Assembly: GCF_004010195.1 (NCBI RefSeq)
Contig: NC_057719.1
Location: forward strand, 10,141,529 to 10,192,182
DNA length: 50,654 nt
Reading direction: 5' to 3'
Source of the DNA: Chiloscyllium plagiosum
Lineage: Eukaryota
In this document: one piece after another, positions 3,326-46,534 of the stretch
Numbering within the stretch: the first letter of the stretch is position 1
How the letters are laid out: each line of letters starts with the position of its first letter
Notes under the pieces: model-generated
Database searches by the model: none
What the model was told of the DNA's origin: nothing
Seen by the model: only the letters and a program-made list of their open reading frames with translations
Made by a program: the position numbers and the translations under genes

Positions 3326-4120
3326 GAACACCATTAAATAACTTAGCTGTATTAGTGACACAAGAAATCAATACTCTCGCCTTAAAGTTTAGTGCAACCT
3401 CACTACACATGAGCTCAAACGGCCATTCATATTACTGGGCTGTATGTCAATTTTGCAACAACATGATAAACCTGTCGAGTGATCCTGCATCATATCTTTG
3501 ATTGGGGCTCGTGGGATATTGCAGTACAGAGATTCCAGAATAGGAAAATACAATATTGTAAATGTCAGACTTCCTATCTGACAATAAATCATAAACCATC
3601 CAACATTTCCTTCAACTCAACACCGGAGGATTGAAGTCAACTTAATTAGTATTTGTCAGAAGCTCTGTACTGTTCCCAGAGACTACCTTCTTAACTGGCT
3701 GCATTTCTTGGCCAAATTAGCTGAGACATAACTTTATTGCCCAGTTCAGTCGAAAGCTCATCTTCCAACCCGATTTCATACTCACTTCTCTCTACTTTAA
3801 TCACACTGCTGTCTTAGCCATAGTTTTATGCCTTGCTACGATGTCTACAGTCTTTCCCTTACTGTTGAACCAGGTTGCTGGATCCAGAAACTTTATTTTT
3901 ATTTCAAAAATATACTTTATTCATAAAGTATTTTGATGGGCTGTACAGTTGGTCATGCCATACATACAGAAACATTCCATTTCTTTGCATACAGAGATCA
4001 GAATTTATCATTAGTATATACCGGTCTGTATGTTTGTCAATCATATGTCCATATATTTAGCTGAGGCGTCAGCAAAGCCCAAATGACTGGGTGGGCCCCC
4101 TGTTCTTAGGCAGGCAGATG

Positions 4121-7100
4121 TTACACGGTGGTCTTTCCCCACCGCACCTTGGCGGCAGCTGCCCCAAGCTTCAACGCGTCCCTCAACACGTAGTCCTGGA
4201 CCTTGGAATGTGCCAGTCTGCAACACTCAGTCGGGGTCAACTCCTTCAGCTGGAAGATCAACAGGTTTCAGACCGTCCAGAGAGCATCTTTCACCGAGTT
4301 GATGGTCCTCCAGGCACAGTTATGTTCGTCTCGGTGTGCGTCCCAGGGAACAGGCCGTAGAGCACGGAATCCTGCGTCACGGCGCTGCTCGGGACGAACC
4401 TCGACAAACACCACTGCATTCCTCTTCAGACTTCTTCTGCATAGGCACATTCCAGAAGGTGATGTGTGACAGTCTCGCCCCCCGCAGCCGCTTCGAGGGC
4501 AGCGTGCAGTGCGGTGCGGCAGAGAGTCCGGGCATGCATAAAAGATCTCACAGGCAGAGCCTTTCTCACCACCAGCCAAGCCATGTCTTGGTGCTTGTTG
4601 GAAAATTCTGGCGATGAGGCATTCTGCCAAATGGCTTTGACAATCTGCTCAGGGAACAGCTCGATAGGATCCGCCCTCTCCTTTTCCCAAAGGGTCTCAA
4701 GGACACTACGTGCTGATCACTTCCTGATGGAGTTGTGGTGAAAGGTGTTTTTCTCCATAAACTTCTCCACGAAGGACAGGTGATACGAAACGGTCCAACT
4801 ACTCGGAGCGTTCCGCGGCAGTGAGGCCAGGTCTATCCTTCGCAACACCGGGGACACGTAGAACCTCAGTACGTAGTGTCACTTGGTGTTTGCGTACCGG
4901 GGATCCACGCACAGCTTGATGCAGCCACACACAAAGGTGGCCATCAGGGTGAGAGTGGCATTGGGTGTATCTTTTCCCCCATTTCCCAGATCTTTATACA
5001 TCGAGTCCCTTCGGACCCAGCCCATCTTTGACCTCCATATAAATTGGAAGATGGCCCGGGTGACTGCAGCGGCACAGGTTCTGGGAATAGGCCAGACCTG
5101 TGCCACATATAACAACAATGACAGTGCCTCACACCTGATGACCAGGTTTTAAACCGCGATGGAGAGCAACCGTAGCTTCCATCTGCCCAGTTTCTGCCTC
5201 ACTTTGCTTATACGCTCCCCCGAGACTTGGCGCACACCCCAGCCCCCTCGAACCAAATACCCAGCACCTTCAGGTGGTCGCCTGACTCCAGATCTGACTG
5301 GGAAGCTATCTGATTCCCACCCGTTGATTGAGACTGCACTGACAATGTTGGTGTAGAGCAGTCTGATCCAATTGCAGATTCCCTCCCCAAAGCCCATTTT
5401 GGAGAGAACATCTCTCATATACCTGTGTGATAACCTGTCACAGGCTTTCTCCTGGTCCAGGCTGATCAGGCAGGTGTCCAACCCCCTGTCCTGCACGTAG
5501 GTGATCATATCCCTGAGGAGCGTGAGACTCTCAGCGATCTTCCTGCCCGGTACAGCACAGGTTTGGTCAGGGTGAATCACCGACCCCAGAGCAGACCTGA
5601 CCTGGTTGGCGATAACTTTTGACAGAATTTTGTGATCCGCATTCAACAGTGAGATTGGTCTCCAATTTCTGAGTTCCTCCCTCTCCCCCTTCCGCTTGTA
5701 GATGAGGGTGATGATGCCTTTTCTCATGGATTCACTCATGGTACCTGCCCGAAGCATACTGACATACACCTCCAGCAGGTCCTGGCCAATCAAGTCCCAC
5801 AGAGCAGAATAGAGCTCGACCGGTAAGCCGTCGCTTCTGGGAGTTTTATTCTTTTCGAAGGACTCGAGGGCCTTGGTCAGCTCGTCCAGAGATAGCGGCT
5901 GGTCCAACCTCTCTCGTGTTCCGTCGGCTACGACCTCCGTGATAGAGGACAGGAACGATTGGGAGGCCGCGCTGTCGGTCGGCTTCGCGTCATACGGACT
6001 GGCATAGAAGGATTTACTGATCCTCATGACGTCAGCCTGAGATGACGTTATCGAGCCATCTTCTTCCTTCAGGCTGCTGAGCACGGAGCTCTCTTTGTGC
6101 ACCTTCTGGAAGAAGAAACATGAGCACGTCTCGTCCTGCTCCACCGAGCGGACCCTGGACTGGAAGAATTTCTAGGAGGCCTCCGCGTCAAAGACCGAGG
6201 CTTGCTGGCCCTTCACCTCCTTGAGGTCCTCTGTGATATCGACCCCCATCATCTGCAGCAGGAGCAGGTTCTGCATACTTTCCTGGAGCTGGGACAGTTT
6301 TCCCCGCCTCTCTCTGATCTCCTGAACACCTTTGAGGATGAAGAACCTTGTGATGTTCCCTTTTACTGTTTCCCACCAGTCCACTGGGGACTCAAAGAGG
6401 GGCTTCATGGTTCTCCAATCTATGTAATCCCTCTTGAGCTCCTCAATGTTACCCAGGGTCAACAGCTTTGTGTTCAGCGTTCCCTTACCAGCCCGCTGCT
6501 CGTCCTGTAGGTGACAGTCAGCCAGCAGGAGGCAGTGGTGAGAGAAGAACACCATCTTGACGTCGGTGGATCTGACCGAGAGCGTTCGGGACACAAACAG
6601 GTAATCTATCCTTGAGCAGATAGACCAGTCTGCCCGTGACCAGGTGTATCTACGCTGTGCTCCATCTGCAGGGGTGCTGAAGACATCGTGCAGCTTGGCA
6701 TCTTTTACCATGTCCATCAGGGCTCTGGACATGGTGTCCAGTTTACTGTCCCCCCCGTCAGATCGTTCATCTGCATCAATGATACAGCTGGAGTCTCCGG
6801 CCAGAATGACCGGCCTGGACGTAGCCAGCAACAGTGGAAGCTGCTGCAGGACGGCCAACCGTTCACTCTTACCCACTGGGGCGTACACATTAATCAGTCT
6901 CAGGGGAGCATTCCTGTACATGACGTCGGCGACGAGGAGGCACCCGCCCACCGCCTCCTTAACCTCGGAGATGGTGAAGTTGCCTCCTTGCAACAGGATA
7001 CCCAGGCCGGAGGCGCGGCTATCGTTGCCCCCCCCGACCAAACTGACGGCCCATGGGTCCACAAGCTCAACCATTTCCTGTAGCTGCTGAGGTGCGGTAT

Positions 7101-7204
7101 CCCACACTCCTGCAGAAACAGGACGTCGGCTTTAACATTGTAGAAACACATTGCGTAGCCGATTTGATGCTACGCACATTGATGCTGGCAACTCTTATCC
7201 CCAT
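4121..7204 (-). pseudogene. Tx1 ORF2: apurinic endonuclease, reverse transcriptase and C-terminal Cys motif; frameshifted and internally deleted
   Basis: MGIRVASINVRS start; LQE, INVYAP, LAGD, RIDY endonuclease motifs; RT motifs NWRPISLLNAD.KIL, HPDQT, LDQEKA.D; C-terminal CPRSGCGG..HL..EC; ends WGKTTV*. Confidence 0.9.
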
Positions 7205-8541
7205 TTTAACAGTTTACAAGGTTAACAGTGTCCATTTACTGCTGGTCTTGCCCCACTGGGGTAGCTGTGTGCATCCCCGTGGTGATGGCAAAATGCTGGA
7301 CCCTCCCAGGGCTGAGGTAGCTGTCCGGCTCCACGCTGGGGCCATTTCCCCGCTCTGGTGTCTTTGGGTCGGGCCCAGGGTCCGCACAGTCCAGTTCTCC
7401 ATCTGACAGCGGGGCTGTCACAGGACCGCTGCCCTCAGTTACCTGGAGCTGTGGGCCGGTGGGTACCTCTTGGTTCTCACCGGGTAGGGGGTGATCTTTA
7501 CCCATCCCCTCAGAGGGATCGTCTTTCCCTGTTTAGGCAGTGCTGCCCTCCTTTCTCCTCGCGGTGCTCTGTCTCTTCCCCTGGTGATGACCCTCCTTGC
7601 GCCAGTCCTCACCATCGGAAGAGCTGCCTGTATCCTCGTCAAGTAGGTAGCGCTCCCCCCTTTAATGGGTGGCTTTGGGGGCCTGGTGAGGTTTCCTCTT
7701 CCTGCTTTTGACAGTAATCCAATCCTCTGCCTCCTTTGTTCCCTCCTCTTCCATTTCCTCTGCCTGTCTTGAAGGAGCTTGGATCGGCTGCTGCACCTCC
7801 CCTCTGTCTGCCGTCTGCTCCACTCCAGCCTGCCCTTCCTTCTGGGTGCCTCCAGGCACCGTTCCCATCCTGTTTTGTGGTACCTTGCTGGTCTTAGGTG
7901 GTCCATGGCTCGTGTTGCCACCTCCAGCCATCTGTGCATAGGTGGCGGCCCCTCATCTTGGGCAGGCCTTGTACATGTGGCCCGCCTCTCCGTGGCCCGC
8001 CTCTCCGCACAGATTACAGTTCTTGGCCTCCTTACATTCCTTGGTTGGGTGGCCTTTCTGCTTGCAGTTTCAACAGACGGTCACCTTACAATCCGCTGCC
8101 ATGTGGCCTGACCTCCCACAGGTTCGGCACACTTTTGGCGGCTCTGCGTATGTCAGGTAACCTCTGCTTCCTCTGATGGCAAAGCTGGAGGGTGGGTGGA
8201 GGATGTTCCCATTGGCATTGACCCTCAGGGTTACCCTGACCTGTCGTGTGTTGGTCCAGATCCCAAAAGGATCGACCACATCGGTGCTTTCTCCCTCAAC
8301 TTGGACGTATCTTCTCAGGAAGGTGAGGACATCTGCTGCTGGGACGTGGGAGTTGTACACATGGATTGTAACACCCTGACTTCTCTTCGCAGGAAGAACA
8401 CATAACGGGACCGTCGACAAGATGGAGAACAGAGGTTCCCCTTCCTTGTCCTTGAAGACCTTCAGGAGCTGCTCACATTTCTTCATGCTCCTGAAGGTCA
8501 CGTCGAAATAGCCTGCCCCTGGGAAATCCTGCACGCAGTAC

Positions 8542-8787
8542 TTTTTTTTAAATTTCAGAAATATACTTTATTCATAAAATAATTTGATGGTCTGTACAGT
8601 TGGTCATGCCATACATACGTAAACGTTTGCATACAGAGATCAGAATTTATCATTTGCATATACAGGTCTGTACGTTTATCAATCATATATCCATATATTT
8701 AGCTGAGGCGTGGGCCCCCTGTTCTTCTTAGGCAGGCAGATGTTACATGGTGGTCTTTCCCCACTGCGCCTTGGCAGTAGCTGCCCC
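8542..8787 (-). mobile_element. 5'-truncated Tx1 3' end (last ORF2 codons, 3' UTR, polyA) nested in host ORF1
   Basis: Highly similar to 3891-4170. TSD aaatcctgca(c/g)gcagtac at 8524-8541 and 8788-8805. Confidence 0.88.
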
Positions 8788-8811
8788 AAATCCTGCAGGC
8801 AGTACACATCC

Positions 8812-9731
8812 TTTTTTTAATTTCAAAATATACTTTATTCTTAGAAATAAATCTTTGGTACTTGTACAATTTGTCATGTCGTTCATAGATATATACATTG
8901 CGTGTCTTAACATTACAAAGAACAGATTGAATTACTCGAATTTATAGTTATCCTGTTTACAGTTCCCTTTATTAACCATCCAGTCTCTTAGTATTTAGCT
9001 GTGGCTTCAGCGGAACCCACCTACTGAGTGGGTGCCCTGTTATACTATAGCAAATGCACCTTTTTTAATCCCAGTGCATGGGGTTACCGTTGTCCATTTG
9101 ACTGTCCTGTCTCTGGGGAAGCTGTCTGCATCCCCATGGTGAGCACGAACTGCTGGACCCTCGCTGGGCTGAGGTAGCTATCCAGGCTCTCATTGGGGTC
9201 ATTTACCTGCTCTGGAGTCATTGAGCCAAGGCAAGGGTCCGCACCGTCCAGTTCTGTGTCTGACAATGGGACTGTCAGAGGATCACAGCTCTCAGTTGTC
9301 TGTACTTGTGGGGCAGTGGGTATCCCCCGGTTCTCACTGGGTGGAGGGTGGACTTCGGGGGGTCTGTTGTTTCCTGGTTGGGAGGAAATGCCCTTCTCTT
9401 TATCTACGGTGCTGATTTTCTCTTCCTGTTTTTAACAGGTATCCACTCCTCTGTCTGCTCGATTACCTTCTCCTCCATTGCTTCCATCTGCCCAGCGAGA
9501 GCTAGGATCAGCTGCTGTGTCTCTCCACTGGTTGCCACCTCTTCCACTCCAGCCTGTTCTTCTTTCTGGGTGCCACCAGACTCTGTTTCCTTGCTGTCTG
9601 GGTGCACATTACTGGTCTTTGGGGGTCCACGGCTCGCATTGCCACCTCCAGCCATCTGTGCATAAGTGGGGTCCCCCCGTCTTGGGCAGGTCTTGTACAT
9701 GTGGCCCGCCTCTCCGCACAGGTTGCAGCTT
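8812..9731 (-). mobile_element. 5'-truncated ORF1-only (HAL1-like) Tx1 derivative nested in host ORF1
   Basis: ORF1 C-terminal half (CNLCGEAGHMYKTCPR...SYLSPARVQQF..MGM, stop at 9084) followed directly by a Tx1-type 3' UTR and polyA. TSD agtacacatcc at 8801-8811 and 9732-9742. Confidence 0.8.
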
Positions 9732-10759
9732 AGTACACATCCGCTGTTTCAAACCTGCAGCACTCCAACAAAATCTTCTTGACAAACACTGTCCGATCGA
9801 CCGGTGTGTGCTCCTCCACCTTCTTCACAGTCACCCTGACTATGTTGCGAATGCCCTGGCCAGGGCTGCGAGCGGCTGCTGAGGCCATAGCTCTGAGGTT
9901 GGCTGGTACCTGAATTGGCGTTAGGCCGAAGCCAGCATAAAGATCCACCAAGAGCAGGTCAGGTCACCACAACCAAACGAACCTTCAATGTCCAATCACG
10001 ATCCAACGATGATCTCCAGCAGCTCTGACGACTCACAACACAAGCCCTGTGGTATCTCCCCCGCCAGCACACGTCCGCTGCGTCGAACCTGCAGCACTCA
10101 AGCAGAATCTCTTCCTCTAGTCCTCAGGAACTACACATATTCCAGGTTGCTGGATCCAGAAATAGCCCCACCAACATTCTGCCTCCAGCCCCTCCACTGT
10201 TACATTCCATGCAAATCCAGTATTGTCATATCATGTGCATACACCTTTAAAGAGGTGCATCTTAAACTCGTATCAATCACTGCATACAACAGCAGGATGG
10301 GATGATTTCTTCCAGGACTCATTAGTCAGTTTGAATCACGAGTGATAGAGATTAGATGTACAATGGTGAGATCCCAGAAAACCTTATCTGTATGTCGTCT
10401 AATTTTAAAATGAATAACTCAATTATCGCTTCACTTATTCTGCTGTGTGATTGGTACTTTTACACTCAATAGATGAATATAACAAGCTCCTTTCATTCCT
10501 TCACACCAAAGTAACAAATCCACAATCTACATTTTAATTTCCTCTCCCTCAATTAAAGATGCAGTCTTTCTCAACATTAAGGGAATCAAGGGGCTAAGTC
10601 AGGAAGGTGAAGTTGAAGAGACTCGCTCTAATTTTTTTGAATGATAGAACAGGCCTTTAAGACACTTCCGTCTCTTCCTGTTCTATAACATTACCCAATG
10701 CTAGCTCAGAAATGTTATCCATCCTCAAGTTCCTCTGCATACCCTCCAACATTGGTTTT

Positions 10760-14775: not shown

Positions 14776-15826
14776 CCCTACTTTAAAAAATCATTATTAG
14801 TTCTTCGAGAAGTACACGTGCAACAAAAATGGCTCCAAATAAAATTGTTGTCAAGGATACCACCATCAAAGTTCTTTTTGTAAGTGTCGAAGGCGAAAGA
14901 ATGAAAAGATTTTTTTTTTATCACATTTTTCATCACCATGTTTATGCTAGCTTCGTAAGATGTGCCATGCAAAAATCCTTCCCGAATCTTCCCTACCTCT
15001 TCAATCTAATTCCCGTTCATGTTCCCAATGCACACCCTTCAGCTTCACAATTTCAGCCCACTGTGAATGCCCCTGCATCATCAATGGGAGATCCTACATC
15101 AACACTGAGAAACTCATATTCCAAACCATTCCATCTCCCAAGACCTCTGGCCAAGCTCAAAAAACACAGAAACAGGCCAATCCCTTTAACCTCAACTACT
15201 TCAATCACCTTTTTAACTCTTCTGGTCCTGCTGTTGTCCATTTCCCCAATCCATGAATTTGCTTTGCACTCTCTGGGATTCACAACTGTTAAACTATGCC
15301 ATAGAGCAAATTATTACGGTAAACTCAACCAAAGGATTCCCACCTCCATAAATGAACAAGTGAAATTGCTGGAGAAACTCAGCAGCTCTGGAGAGAGAAA
15401 CCCAGTTAATGTTTTGAGTCTGGTATAACTCTTCCTCAGAATTTTAGAAACTCTTCACAAAGAGAGGCATGAGAATCCTCATCAGAACATAGCAGAATCA
15501 TCTCAACAGCTAACCCACACACAGAAGATTAGAGAGGTTTCCCTGTGAAGGCTCCAATATGCTACCTCCCTGGGTATCCCAGATGAACACAGACCCTCGA
15601 GCTGTGCAGAAAAAGGGCTGGAGAGACTCTGAGTGCAGGAGATCTGCTGACAAACTGAGGCATTGGCATCAGAGATATGCCCCTTCACTGGCTCACAAAA
15701 TAAAAAGGGACATAAATAAAACTCTCCCCTGCCTGATAATGATGCAGGCAGTGCCTGGGTTGGGAATGGGTTCCATTCTTGAATCCTCTCGCAAGTCAAT
15801 TTGTACGAATGTCAGAACACAATGCA

Positions 15827-16058
15827 GAGTGGAAAAGTGTGGCACTGGAAAAGCACAGCAGGTCAGGCAGCCTCTGAGGAGCAGGAGAGTTGACGTTTTG
15901 GGCATAAGCCCTTCACCAGGAAGGTCTTCATTCTGATGAAGGGCTTTTGCCCAAAATGTCGATTTTCCTGCTCCTCAGATGCTGCCCGACACGCTGAGCT
16001 TTTCCAAGGCCACACTTTTCCATTCTGACTCTCCAGCATCTGCAGTCCTCACTTTCTC
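15827..16058. mobile_element. PLE-derived inverted-pair element
   Basis: Head-to-head arms with decayed hammerhead cores; perfect 15-bp TSD tcagaacacaatgca at 15812-15826 and 16059-16073. Confidence 0.85.
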
Positions 16059-42913: not shown

Positions 42914-44288
42914 CATCCATATCTAAGCCTTCAAGCAGGAAGTCAGGTGCTATCGCTCTAATCTTATCCATACTGGGCTTATTTCTACTTGAGTTCTTAT
43001 CACCATCTTTGTCCAATCACAGTGTTGACAAAGGTTGGTAAGTAAAATCAACTTGAGGCTTCAGCAAGACTGAAACATATTTGCCCCACTCTGCAGCACT
43101 TATTTATCTTGAAGTACATGGACTTACTGGTGAGAGGTTGTTAATTTTTCACTATTCTACCTCCTTGTGCCAGGTTGCAACGGCACAGGCAACAGTCACT
43201 ATTTATTCAAGCGGTCCCAGTCCTGAAATGAAAGCAAAATACTGCAGATGCTAGTAATCTGCAACAAACACAGAGAATGCTGGAGAAACTCAGCACCTCT
43301 GGTAGCATTTGTGAAAAGAGAAACAGAGTTAATGCTTTGAGTCTGTTATGGCTTTTCTTTAGAATTCTATCTGCAGTATAAGCTTTCATTATCTATCTCG
43401 TCTTGTTTCAGTTCCTTTAAACTCATCTCTTGCATGCAAAGTGATTCCACTCCTCTCAGTGAGAACACTGCTTGTCGCATGCTGGACATGCTTCCTTTTC
43501 TTTTGTTTGATGTTCTCTCTAATTTTCCATTCTAGCTCTCTGACAACTCTTCTGCAAATATTCCTTCTTTTTTCCCTAATCTGTTGTTCTCATTTGGCCT
43601 GGAATGCCTCTCAGCATCATGCAATGCCTGGTCTATTCTTCCATTAATCCACAGATACACAGCATATGGACAATTGACAGTCTCCAAGGTTCTGCACATG
43701 TTGATAGTGTCAAGAAAGCTATGTTTCTCCTCACTCAGCTGATATGATCTCATGGCAGGATCTCTTATGAGATATTCGAGGAGAAAGTGAGGTCTGCAGA
43801 TGCTGGAGATCAAAGTTGAAACTTTATTGCTGGAACAGCACAGCAGGTCAGGCAGCATCCAGGGAACAGGAGATTCGACGTTTCGGGAATGAGCAGAAGT
43901 GTTCAGCAGGAGAAGATAAAAGGTAGGGAGGAGGGACTTGGAGGAGGGGCGTTGGAAATGTGATAGGTGGAAAGAGGTCAAGGTGAGGGTGATAGGTCGG
44001 AGTAGGATGGAGGCGGAGAGGTCAAGAAGAAGACTGCAAGTCAGGAAGGCGGTGCCGGGCTGGAGGAATCCGGCTGAGACAAGGTGGGGGGAGGGGGAAT
44101 GAAGAAACTGGTGAAGTCCAAGTTCATCCCCTGCGGTTGGAGGGTTCCCAGTCGGAAGATAAGACGCTCCTCCTCCGACCGTCGCGTTGTTGTGGTTTGG
44201 CGGTGGATGAGTCCAATGACCTGCATATCCTCGGTGGAGTGGGAGGGGGAGTTGAAATGCTGTGCCACAGGTTGGTGGGGTTGGTTCG

Positions 44289-44450
44289 NNNNNNNNNNNN
44301 NNNNNNNNNNNNNNNNNNNNNNNNNNNNNNNNNNNNNNNNNNNNNNNNNNNNNNNNNNNNNNNNNNNNNNNNNNNNNNNNNNNNNNNNNNNNNNNNNNNN
44401 NNNNNNNNNNNNNNNNNNNNNNNNNNNNNNNNNNNNNNNNNNNNNNNNNN
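44289..44450. other. Assembly gap
   Basis: Run of N. Confidence 1.
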
Positions 44451-44689
44451 GACTGTGTAATATCTTGCAGACTATACACGTCTCTTACCTCTTACTGATG
44501 TCACGCCTGATTGTCTGTGTAATATCTTGCAGACAATACATGTCTACTACCTCTTCCAGATGTCACTCCTGATAGTCTGTGAAATGTCTTGCAGCAGTTA
44601 CACATCTATTACCTCTTCCAGATGTCACTCCTCATGGATTGTGTAATATCTTGCAGACTATACACATCTATTACCTCTTCCAGATGTCA
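44451..44689. repeat. 62-bp tandem repeat (about 3.8 copies visible)
   Basis: Unit tgtgtaatatcttgcagactatacacatctattacctcttccagatgtcactcctgatagtc starts at 44454, 44516, 44578 and 44640. Confidence 0.9.
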
Positions 44690-44799
44690 TAGAACATAGA
44701 ACATAGAAGAATACAGCGCAGTACAGGCCCTTGGGCCCTCGATGTTGCGCCGATCCAAGCCCACCTAAACTACACTAACCCACTATCCTCCATATATCC
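44688..44799 (-). mobile_element. CR1-like LINE 3' tip
   Basis: (catagaa)n tail followed by tacagcgcagtacaggcccttgggccctcgatgttgcgccg. Confidence 0.7.
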
Positions 44800-46534
44800 T
44801 TGGTGCTGGGGTCTGTTTGGAGGTGGCGGAAGTGACGGCGGATGATGCGCTGTACATGGAGATTGGTGGGGTGGTAGGTGAGGACCAGTGGGGTTCTGTC
44901 CTGGTGGCGGTTGGAGGGGCGGGGCTCAAGGGCGGAGGAGCGGGAAGTGGAGGAGATGCGGTGGAGGGCACCGTCGACCACGTCGGGGGGGGTAATTGCG
45001 GTCCTTGAAGAAGGAGGCCATCTGTGTTGTACGTATTTTGAACTGGTCCTCCTGGGAGCAGATGCGGCGGAGACGAAGGAATTGGGAGAATGGGATGGCG
45101 TTTTTACAGGGGGCAGGATGGGAGGAGGTGTAGTCTAGGTAGCTGTGGGAGTCGGTTGGTTTGTAGTAGATGTCCGTGTTGATTCGGTCGCCTGAGATAG
45201 AAACGGAAAGGTCTAGGAAGGGGAGGGAGGAGTCCGAGACTGTCCAGGTGAATTTGAGGTCGGGGTGGAAGGTGTTAGTGTAGTGGATGAGCTGTTCAAC
45301 CTCCTCGTGGGAGCACGAGGTAGCGCCGATACAGTCATCAATGTAGCGGAGGAAAAGATGGGGGGTGGGGCCAGTGTAGTTGCGGAAGATGGATTGTTCC
45401 ACATACCCTACAAAGAGGCAGGCATAGCTGCGGCCTATGCGGGTGCCCATGGCTACTCCTTTTGTTTGGAGAAAGTGGGAGGATTGGAAAGGAAAGTTGT
45501 TCAGGGTGAGGACCAGTTCGGTCAGTCGAAGGAGGGTGTCGGTGGAAGGGTACTGGGTGGTACGGCGGGAAAGGCAGAAGCGGAGTGCTTTGAGTCCTTC
45601 GTGATGGGGGATGGAGGTGTACAGGGACTGGATGTCCATGGTGAAGATGAGGCGTTGGGGACCGGGGAAGCGGAAGTCCTGGAGGAGGTGGAGGGCGTGG
45701 GTGGTGTCACGAACGTAGGTGGGGAGTTCTTGGACTAATGGGGACAGGACCGTGTCGAGGTATGCCGAGATGTGTTCGGTTGGGCAGGAGCAGGCTGAGA
45801 CGATGGGTCGTGCGGGGGAGTCAGGTTTGTGGATTTTGGGCAGGAGGTAGAAGCGGGCGGTGCGGGGTTGTGGGACTATGAGGTTGGAGGCGGTGGATGG
45901 GAGGTCCCCTGAGGTGATGAGGTTATGGATGGTCTGGGAGATGATGGTTTGGTGGTGGGGGATGGGGTCATGGTCAAAGGGATGGTAGGAGGAGGTATCT
46001 GCGAGCTGGCGTTTGGCCTCAGCGGTGTAAAGGTCAGTGCGCCAGACTACTACTGCGCCTCCCTTGTCAGCTGGTTTGATGGTGAGGTTGGGGTTGGAAC
46101 GGAGGGAGTGGAGGGCTGCGCGTTCCGAGGGTGAGAGGTTGGAGTGGGTGGGAGGGGTGTGGGAGTTCAGGTAGCGGTTAATATCGCGGCGGCAGTTTGC
46201 TATGAAGAGGTCGAGGGCAGGTATGAGGGCAGGTAAGAGGTCTTATGAGATATCCCAATCCTTCAACTTATAGGCTGTCAACTCAGTACACTGTCGGCTA
46301 GCTCTGAGCAAGCAAATGAAAACTGCAAATGATGGAGGAAGGGTTCTGAGCAAGGATCACTCAACCTGAAACATTAACTCTGATTTCTCTCCACAGATGC
46401 TGCCAGACCTGATGAGCCTTTCCAGCAAATTCTGGTTTTGTTTCTGCAAATGAAAGATAGTTCTCCTAAGATTGTTGCTTAGTGGCAGCAGTGACTTAGA
46501 ACCTTCCTCTGACTGTGGGCTTCTTTCACCAGGA

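Follow-up and report, generated by a model that had tools for sequence, protein, structure and literature searches.

Results

A LINE interrupted twice within its own ORF1

The window (the whole stretch of 50,654 nucleotides analysed here) contains, on the minus strand, a LINE whose ORF1 carries two further insertions. Target-site duplications are abbreviated TSD, and offsets are counted from the G of GTACTG in the ORF1 site. The features are as follows:

3870..3890, host TSD, copy at the 3' end (21 bp), 100% identical to 10142-10162
3891..10141, minus strand, host LINE of subfamily A, near full length and dead, with the 21-bp TSD, a poly(A) tail and ORF1/ORF2 domains
4121..7204, minus strand, host ORF2 (APE endonuclease, reverse transcriptase; PF03372, PF00078), broken
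7236..9888, minus strand, host ORF1 with two ZCCHC3-type RNA-binding domains and zinc knuckles (PF23057, PF23058, PF00098), interrupted by both inserts and with stops further down in the translation
8524..8541, TSD of insert 1, copy on the poly(A) side, with one mismatch
8542..8787, minus strand, insert 1, a 246-bp 3' end of the autonomous family, 80% identical to the host 3' end, junction offset 0
8788..8811, target remnant between the inserts, in which the second copy of TSD1 (8788-8805) overlaps one copy of TSD2 (8801-8811)
8812..9731, minus strand, insert 2, a 5'-truncated subfamily B copy (ORF1 part and 3' UTR), junction offset -6
9732..9742, TSD of insert 2, upstream copy, 11/11
9928..9934, plus strand, position of an antisense hotspot in the 5' UTR (six loci, head positions 208-214), unoccupied in the window copy
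10050..10067, minus strand, U1 snRNA remnant in the host head, 17/18 bases equal to nt 9-26 of U1 genes of the same genome
10066..10110, minus strand, relic of the upstream flank of the ORF1 target in the host head, 37/45 bases matching 9732-9776
10127..10141, minus strand, truncated remnant of the diverged U2 5' piece found at the start of subfamily A heads (longer A heads start with U2)
10142..10162, host TSD, copy at the 5' end, matching 3870-3890

An earlier note on this DNA had described two TSD-bounded inserts in the ORF1 of a Tx1-type LINE, at 8542-8787 and 8812-9731, and we reproduced both the coordinates and the two duplications: the first (8524-8541 against 8788-8805) is identical in 17 of 18 bases and the second (8801-8811 against 9732-9742) in 11 of 11, and neither extends further. 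The other details it had given of the junctions also hold, in that the two TSDs have AGTAC in common (8801-8805), the 3' junctions lie 6 bp apart (offsets 0 and -6) and both inserts have the orientation of the host. The claim that ORF1 is restored by removing the inserts stands for the site itself, where the reading frame is continuous, and indeed open from the start codon across ..LECCRFETADVYCLQDFPGAGYFDV.. and both RNA-binding domains, but four premature stops follow further down and ORF1 is not intact overall. The host ORF2 lacks about 300 bp of the reverse transcriptase core near position 5280, a stretch that is present in relatives. Five protein homologues were found at E 1e-20 or better, three of them named from sharks, which makes the genome likely that of a shark; a DVYCLQDF-like motif is retained in four of the five, and the fifth begins after the motif position. 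Insert 1 shows 80-90% identity to 39 other copies among the matches listed. The ORF1 part of insert 2 is 76-78% identical to the host and is followed directly by the 3' UTR; we add to the earlier account that this insert is a 5'-truncated ORF1-only element and not a plain relative of the host.

The host, from 3891 to 10141, contains no N, and its 5' flank junction is present on contigs of runs X1 and X2 (organism A) and X13 (organism B). The 5' junctions specific to the window are bridged by no listed contig of other sequencing runs, which neither confirms nor refutes the locus. A joint of 8538 to 9735 on run X9 represents the empty-site form and is not attributable to the window locus. In the raw RNA run X21, 78 reads fall on 8725-8885 and only one of them reaches at least 99% identity, so that the reads come from other copies of the family and are uninformative on the window locus. 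None of the sequencing runs listed includes an RNA run holding the window sequence, and metagenome contigs gave no match.

The ORF1 site is a hotspot throughout the assembly

Junctions were collected as poly(A) runs no more than 8 nt ahead of an exact 18-mer of the ORF1 DVYCLQDF motif. The search gave 114 overlapping matches, 100 of which collapse to at least 54 distinct places, spread over 25 chromosome-scale and 12 small contigs. The exact 18-mer itself occurs 306 times in the assembly. For the control motif, situated 136 nt further downstream, 284 copies were counted, none of them with a tail within the preceding 30 nt (a 31-nt window); at least 54 of 306 against 0 of 284 corresponds to a Fisher p of 6e-17. 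A second control window (+40 to +69) returned a single match, which is a point change and not a tail. For fine mapping the anchor was placed at +12 and the 30 nt from -18 to +11 were searched; by our own tally, all 48 junctions fall within the nine nucleotides from -8 to 0 (15 at -8, two at -7, 18 at -6, three at -5, three at -3, four at -2, one at -1 and two at 0). Junctions in the opposite orientation were absent from the ORF1 site, although the anchor itself had turned up in 14 and in 11 of the 30 loci sampled. Of 30 loci chosen by a downstream motif, four carried a tail at the site; between site and anchor no tail was seen. Several hosts carry more than one junction, namely the window copy and those at L064, L066, L075, L076 and L100.

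The preferred target that had been proposed inside the family's own ORF1 is thereby confirmed: the flanks clearly show a sharp peak at DVYCLQDF, and both the observation at the window and a genome-wide hotspot are established. Chance, or a collapsed misassembly of the window locus, has practically no probability left. The unbridged 5' junctions of the window and the many assembly gaps in these repeats speak for it; against it stand the dozens of loci whose inserts, offsets and hosts differ, the empty controls, and poly(A)-to-site junction pieces on contigs from runs of organisms A and B. For the family as a whole, this explanation is already refuted.

Evidence for separate insertions into DNA

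Forty ten-kb stretches, selected for carrying a junction, were assigned to classes by our own classification. Twenty-two of them have a host 5' part that is disrupted at the site or close to it, and the start points of the inserts differ; another 13 contain gaps or are ambiguous, and the remaining five are without the host 5' part despite the lack of an assembly gap. The host 5' end is intact at L301 and L296, where the host's own TSD is found beyond it. TSDs at the ORF1 site measure 8-20 bp in most cases and 2-6 bp in five, those at other loci measure 11-25 bp (in a measurement that reports 11 bp or more only), and the TSDs at the ORF1 site are of the family's usual size. L299 and L300 were left out of the locus analysis.

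It is highly probable that the junctions are ordinary target-primed insertions into genomic DNA, made by the family's own ORF2. They could instead have been made on RNA, either by a reverse transcriptase that halts at DVYCLQ and continues on a different poly(A) RNA or by amplification of a few composites as a whole. The family plainly switches templates to U1 and U2 (compare the heads described in PMC4494074), and the five stretches without a host 5' part would fit such an origin, but the target is duplicated on both sides at many loci, insert start points differ between loci, and plain 5' truncations show no concentration there (one of 30 lies near the site). Moreover, a TSD around the whole composite was found at none of 18 re-fetched loci, 11 of which simply have an N gap at the 5' end of the insert. 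We therefore regard an origin on RNA as very unlikely. A truncation hotspot combined with insertion behind tails was rejected on the same spread of plain truncations.

All types of 3' UTR are represented among 53 distinct junctions, which rules out a single subfamily as responsible for the targeting. At L097, an intronless copy of an LSm-domain mRNA, with UTR and tail, sits at -6 within an 11-bp TSD. Since all subfamilies and this retrocopy occupy the site, the target is likely chosen by protein and not by the template RNA; on the assumption that the family's ORF2 moved the LSm mRNA, the sequence of the template likely does not pick the site.

A preference rather than a specificity

A 25-mer from the 3' end of the family has 2286 exact copies, 82 of them along C1 alone, and the first 90 in genome order served as an unselected sample. 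Two of the 90 lie at the ORF1 site (95% interval 0.3-7.8%), or two of 75 once 15 ends that share merely the last 32-44 nt, and probably belong to other families, are dropped. The flanks of 79 have no family match, and nine match the references elsewhere, one of these probably being a SINE. Of the 29 copies most closely related to insert 1, one (L016) is clearly at the ORF1 site and one (L013) possibly. The site thus takes far less than 20% of copies, the share of flanks in one target above which a LINE has been called target-specific (PMC4494074), and about 97% of family copies are scattered elsewhere. ORF1 is a preference and not a specificity, with about 2-3% of insertions going into some nine bases, far above chance. 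As a landing site for the family it is not the main one, because only two of the 90 unselected ends are there and 79 have flanks unrelated to the family. No shared motif was found in those 79 flanks; as a general flank motif, nothing emerged beyond G/T and then T after the tail, which is partly an artefact of tail trimming.

The earlier note had also seen in the site a means of inactivating full-length copies while offering new ones a safe landing. Damage to such copies is real, in that roughly every sixth ORF1 copy with the motif has been hit (17 of the 97 18-mer copies on C1-C11 carry a tail), and it would provide a built-in brake on copy number, though the hosts may or may not have been alive at the time. 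A purpose as a safe landing site stays a conjecture.

A second site in antisense orientation

Antisense insertions occur at head positions 208-214 (9928-9934 in the window), represented by four exact-anchor matches together with L207 and L310. The anchor was present in 5 of 30 sampled loci for this site against 16 of 30 for the main site; by this measure the site in the 5' UTR has about a quarter of the strength of that in ORF1. Both hotspots lie within the first 420 nt, likely the promoter region. The crocodilian Tx1-Mar elements likewise have one sense and one antisense target region, with no recognisable likeness (PMC4494074).

Heads, subfamilies and the relation to Keno

The ORF2 domains of the family (PF03372, PF14529 and PF00078) are those of an APE-type endonuclease and a reverse transcriptase, and the solved structures nearest to the endonuclease are L1 endonucleases. 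The heads sort the family into four groups, A to D. Those of B and C start with U2 nt 1-52 without five bases at the Keno site and score 35-40 bits in Rfam, below the gathering score of 46; those of D open with a stretch identical to the first ~25 bases of true U1 genes. In subfamily A, Rfam detected neither U1 nor U2 in the window copy's own short head, and it aligned the longer A head of L160 to U2 1-41 at E 0.02, under the gathering score. For L053 it gave U1 at only E 3.1. The U1 genes of the same genome used for comparison score 157 bits. Subfamily B, to which many copies 87-98% like insert 2 belong, is about 1.9 kb long, U2-headed and ORF1-only, and two whole copies of 1921 and 1947 bp are without an ORF2 match. 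HAL1 (half-L1) elements are ORF1-only non-autonomous LINEs derived from mammalian L1; subfamily B resembles them as an ORF1 with a 3' tail and no ORF2 that was amplified as a family, but it comes from a Tx1-type element with a U2 head and not from mammalian L1.

Keno elements are Tx1-clade LINEs specific for U2 snRNA genes, with a 3' flank that starts at U2 nt 39 (PMC4640811). A search for tails before U2 gave two pattern matches, both at nt 39: L281 is a family member (88% to the host) followed by U2 from nt 39, whereas L282 belongs to a more distant family, which leaves a single copy of the host's family found at U2. None of the 90 unselected 3' ends has a U2 3' flank, a count from which collapsed U2 arrays may hide some. 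Placement in the Tx1 clade would rest on the U2 target, the snRNA heads and an ORF1/ORF2 layout that we take to be that of the clade. As in Keno (PMC4640811, PMC4494074), there is an APE endonuclease, a copy with its 3' flank at U2 nt 39, and U2 5' pieces at the 5' end; in contrast to Keno, U2 specificity is largely lost, and far more copies are in the family's own ORF1 than in assembled U2 genes. The family appears to be related to Keno and to behave like a relaxed Keno, without the U2 specificity by which Keno is recognised. The Keno-type U2 target, the snRNA heads, the antisense hotspot and the signs of nested sources had all escaped the earlier note.

Nested copies as probable sources

The head of subfamily A is layered, a diverged U2 piece being followed by the 45-nt ORF1 flank, the U1 remnant and the shared UTR. 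The 45 nt are the ORF1 sequence just upstream of the hotspot, and the relic is common to other subfamily A heads. This is likely the layout of a U1-headed element nested in the ORF1 site of a sibling, and the 5' end of the host likely represents the fossil 5' junction of an earlier self-insertion. U1-headed nestings in the ORF1 site exist at the present day (L086, L078, L091, L147). L138 is a copy of B that lies at an unrelated locus; ahead of its B head, inside the 16-bp TSD, stand 27 nt of target flank of the A type. L154 resembles it and has no clear TSD. The fossil in the A head and the target sequence inside the TSD of L138 together suggest that nested copies act as sources. We think it probable that such copies are transcribed from the 5' end of their host and serve as sources, and that the A head arose in this way; nested copies likely founded new subfamilies. 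Read-through from the host accounts for the A head, L138 and L154 alike. Template switching, which Kojima invokes for snRNA heads in the portion of PMC4494074 concerned with them, is an alternative origin for these three heads with an ORF1 flank, but it would need the same landing place every time.

Conversely, the relic could be the cause of the targeting, if the ORF1 sequence in the A head paired with target DNA and directed the nick. The end of the relic does coincide with the nick window, an overlap that follows from the origin of the relic as a 5' junction; B elements and the LSm mRNA, which are without it, use the same offsets. Guidance by RNA is accordingly highly improbable.

Discussion

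Why the family inserts into its own ORF1

Our main reading, to which we give a probability of about 70%, is that a Keno-related LINE, inserting in the orientation of its host, returns repeatedly to the same nine bases of its own ORF1, and does so as a by-product of relaxed U2 targeting. The ORF2 protein complex of the family would prefer the ORF1 stretch whatever RNA it carries, and the hotspot would be a by-product of relaxed U2-targeting machinery. In our reading the hotspot endures since this stretch codes for a conserved motif of the protein; such a target, part of a conserved RNA-binding motif, is hard to mutate away.

Alternatively, the self-targeting may have been selected, with the family's own ORF1 substituting for scarce U2 genes and offering a harmless site, a ready promoter and rivals knocked out. 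Consistent with this are the enrichment over a random site, which we estimate at about 10^4 (some 500 site copies of 9 nt in 3.56 Gb, against two of 75 in-family 3' ends), the strict host orientation, which read-through requires, the derivation of subfamily A, L138 and L154 from nested sources, and snRNA heads that carry no promoter (PMC4494074). However, merely two of 90 unselected 3' ends are at the site, most inserts are short and 5'-truncated and gain nothing, a full-length insert carries the same 5' UTR as its host, and the antisense site is used too. Selection for self-targeting is in our view unlikely.

What may pick the site

The visible U2-like word at the ORF1 site is a GTGTA likeness. 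Mimicry of U2 (GTGTACTGCCTG like GTGTAGTATCTG) predicts junctions at +6, where none of the 48 falls, and was rejected; in the nick register, identity to U2 is 5/14 at -8, 3/14 at -6 and 4/14 at +6. The site has a predicted DNA fold with z -3.5. In A, B and C copies it is flanked by two predicted hairpins and precedes the second by nine bases; U2 nt 39 likewise precedes its next stem (IIa) by eight. Other ORF1 windows fold as well or better. The flanks of 65 unique sites are not more folded than downstream DNA, and if anything less so, and no compensatory change was seen in 20 aligned copies; hairpins as a general determinant were rejected on these two counts. Tentatively, and somewhat short of an even chance, what is recognised may be less a base sequence than promoter-proximal DNA of a certain local structure, a linker between two inverted repeats positioned as U2 nt 39 is before stem IIa. 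Between a base code and a choice made by protein that takes in structure or promoter context, we favour the second, and the final step of that reading would stand at under even odds. Rather unlikely as a whole is the fullest version, in which a LINE of the Keno lineage would recognise in DNA a hairpin-linker-hairpin shape like that of U2 and would thereby have exchanged the U2 gene for its own ORF1 as a working target, with subfamilies being born by nesting and taking over 5' ends, and leaving behind the layered head of U2, ORF1 target and U1.

Relation to known systems

Several elements of this picture are already in print: for Tx1-Mar, insertion into other repeats, heads taken from snRNAs and 5' extensions derived from the target, and for Zepp and Alu/L1, self-nesting. 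The Tx1-Mar LINEs and SINEU of crocodilians (PMC4494074) belong to a group that clusters with Keno. Like the shark family they have repeatedly added U1- or U2-derived heads, and they have progeny whose 5' extensions come from the target, as is probable for the shark family too. They target other elements (Mariner-N4_AMi, LTR elements), whereas the shark family targets its own ORF1 coding sequence, and the SINEU preference takes 13-90% of copies against about 2-3% at the shark ORF1 site (same source). Zepp and ZeppL of green algae (PMC8226300, PMC3446292) are L1-type elements that nest in their own copies and build arrays of 5'-truncated 3' ends. The shark family shares with them the repeated insertion into existing copies of itself, but Zepp forms one cluster per chromosome according to those sources, and the copies of the shark family are scattered, with a single narrow target in ORF1. 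The self-insertion hotspots of human Alu and L1 (bioRxiv 10.1101/2025.02.26.640385) are likewise fixed spots of pre-existing copies hit on the same strand; they are A-rich tracts with 8-10-fold enrichment, explained there by poly(A) pairing. In contrast, the shark ORF1 site is G+C-rich coding DNA, and its enrichment is orders of magnitude greater. Our literature search, outside of which lay most subscription papers, Repbase and figs S3-S6 of PMC4494074, turned up no Tx1 element described as having a fixed target within its own ORF1. Next to relatives known to aim at other repeats, the new twist is a LINE that aims at its own gene, no other single target in the assembly being hit as strongly as this coding sequence.

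Three targets that do not resemble one another, exactly U2 nt 39, nine nucleotides of sense ORF1 and seven of antisense 5' UTR, are likely served by one protein complex, and with three natural substrates the choice and switching of targets by APE-type LINEs become directly testable. The layered head, for its part, records how a LINE can replace its 5' end, by nesting in a sibling and carrying the flank along.

Non-family and composite inserts at the ORF1 site

The ORF1 site, the sense insertion hotspot before the DVYCLQDF motif, also holds sequence from outside the LINE family. At the genomic locus L097 (6980-7507, contig G000:C36) it carries a processed copy of an LSm-domain (LSm5-like) mRNA, with an 11-bp TSD; this copy suggests that cellular mRNAs are mobilised by the family. 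Another locus, L167, has a poly(A) insert of non-family origin at offset -8, counted from the G of GTACTG. L061 (570-1510) has, at the ORF1 site, a tandem of three U2-headed 5' ends linked through a recurring short ORF2 piece. Telomere-like repeats precede one copy (L116/L145) whose truncation point lies 22 nt before the site.

Insertions elsewhere in the family and near snRNA genes

A second, weaker and antisense hotspot lies in the 5' UTR (window 9928-9934; loci L324-L327, L207, L310 and L304). L069, L080 and L327 each have a portion of the host 5' region in inverted orientation, with a breakpoint near this hotspot, as if the ORF1 site and the antisense site had been cut jointly.

Nesting within the family or its relatives outside the ORF1 site is also common, being found at 7 of the 90 3' ends (L200, L216, L224, L227, L243, L246 and L277), whereas the family occupies about 0.1% of the genome by our own estimate. 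The nesting position is the same in L216 and L227.

On the minus strand of L281 (1400-1620), a family copy is followed by U2 sequence (nt 39 to about 100), behind which lies a second short 3' end; this arrangement would reflect either a second insertion or 3' transduction from a U2-inserted source. Family fragments also lie 350-1500 bp downstream of U1 at six of the U1 gene loci (L313, L314, L315, L319, L322 and L323), perhaps representing a single old insertion amplified along with the U1 array.

Other features of the window

8450-8500 region (+42..+84), 12-bp inverted repeat in ORF1
7977-8007, internal 15-bp tandem duplication in the third zinc knuckle of the host ORF1
2107-2381 and 15825-16027, SINE-like repeat present as two inverted pairs, the arms of each pair 13 nt apart
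43532-46242 and 44453-44689, unrelated minus-strand element that carries an RT, plus a 62-bp tandem repeat adjoining an assembly gap

No covariation was found in the ORF1 inverted repeat; it is kept in copies of subfamilies A, B and C, and forms the strongest predicted hairpin in ORF1 for two of the three copies scanned.
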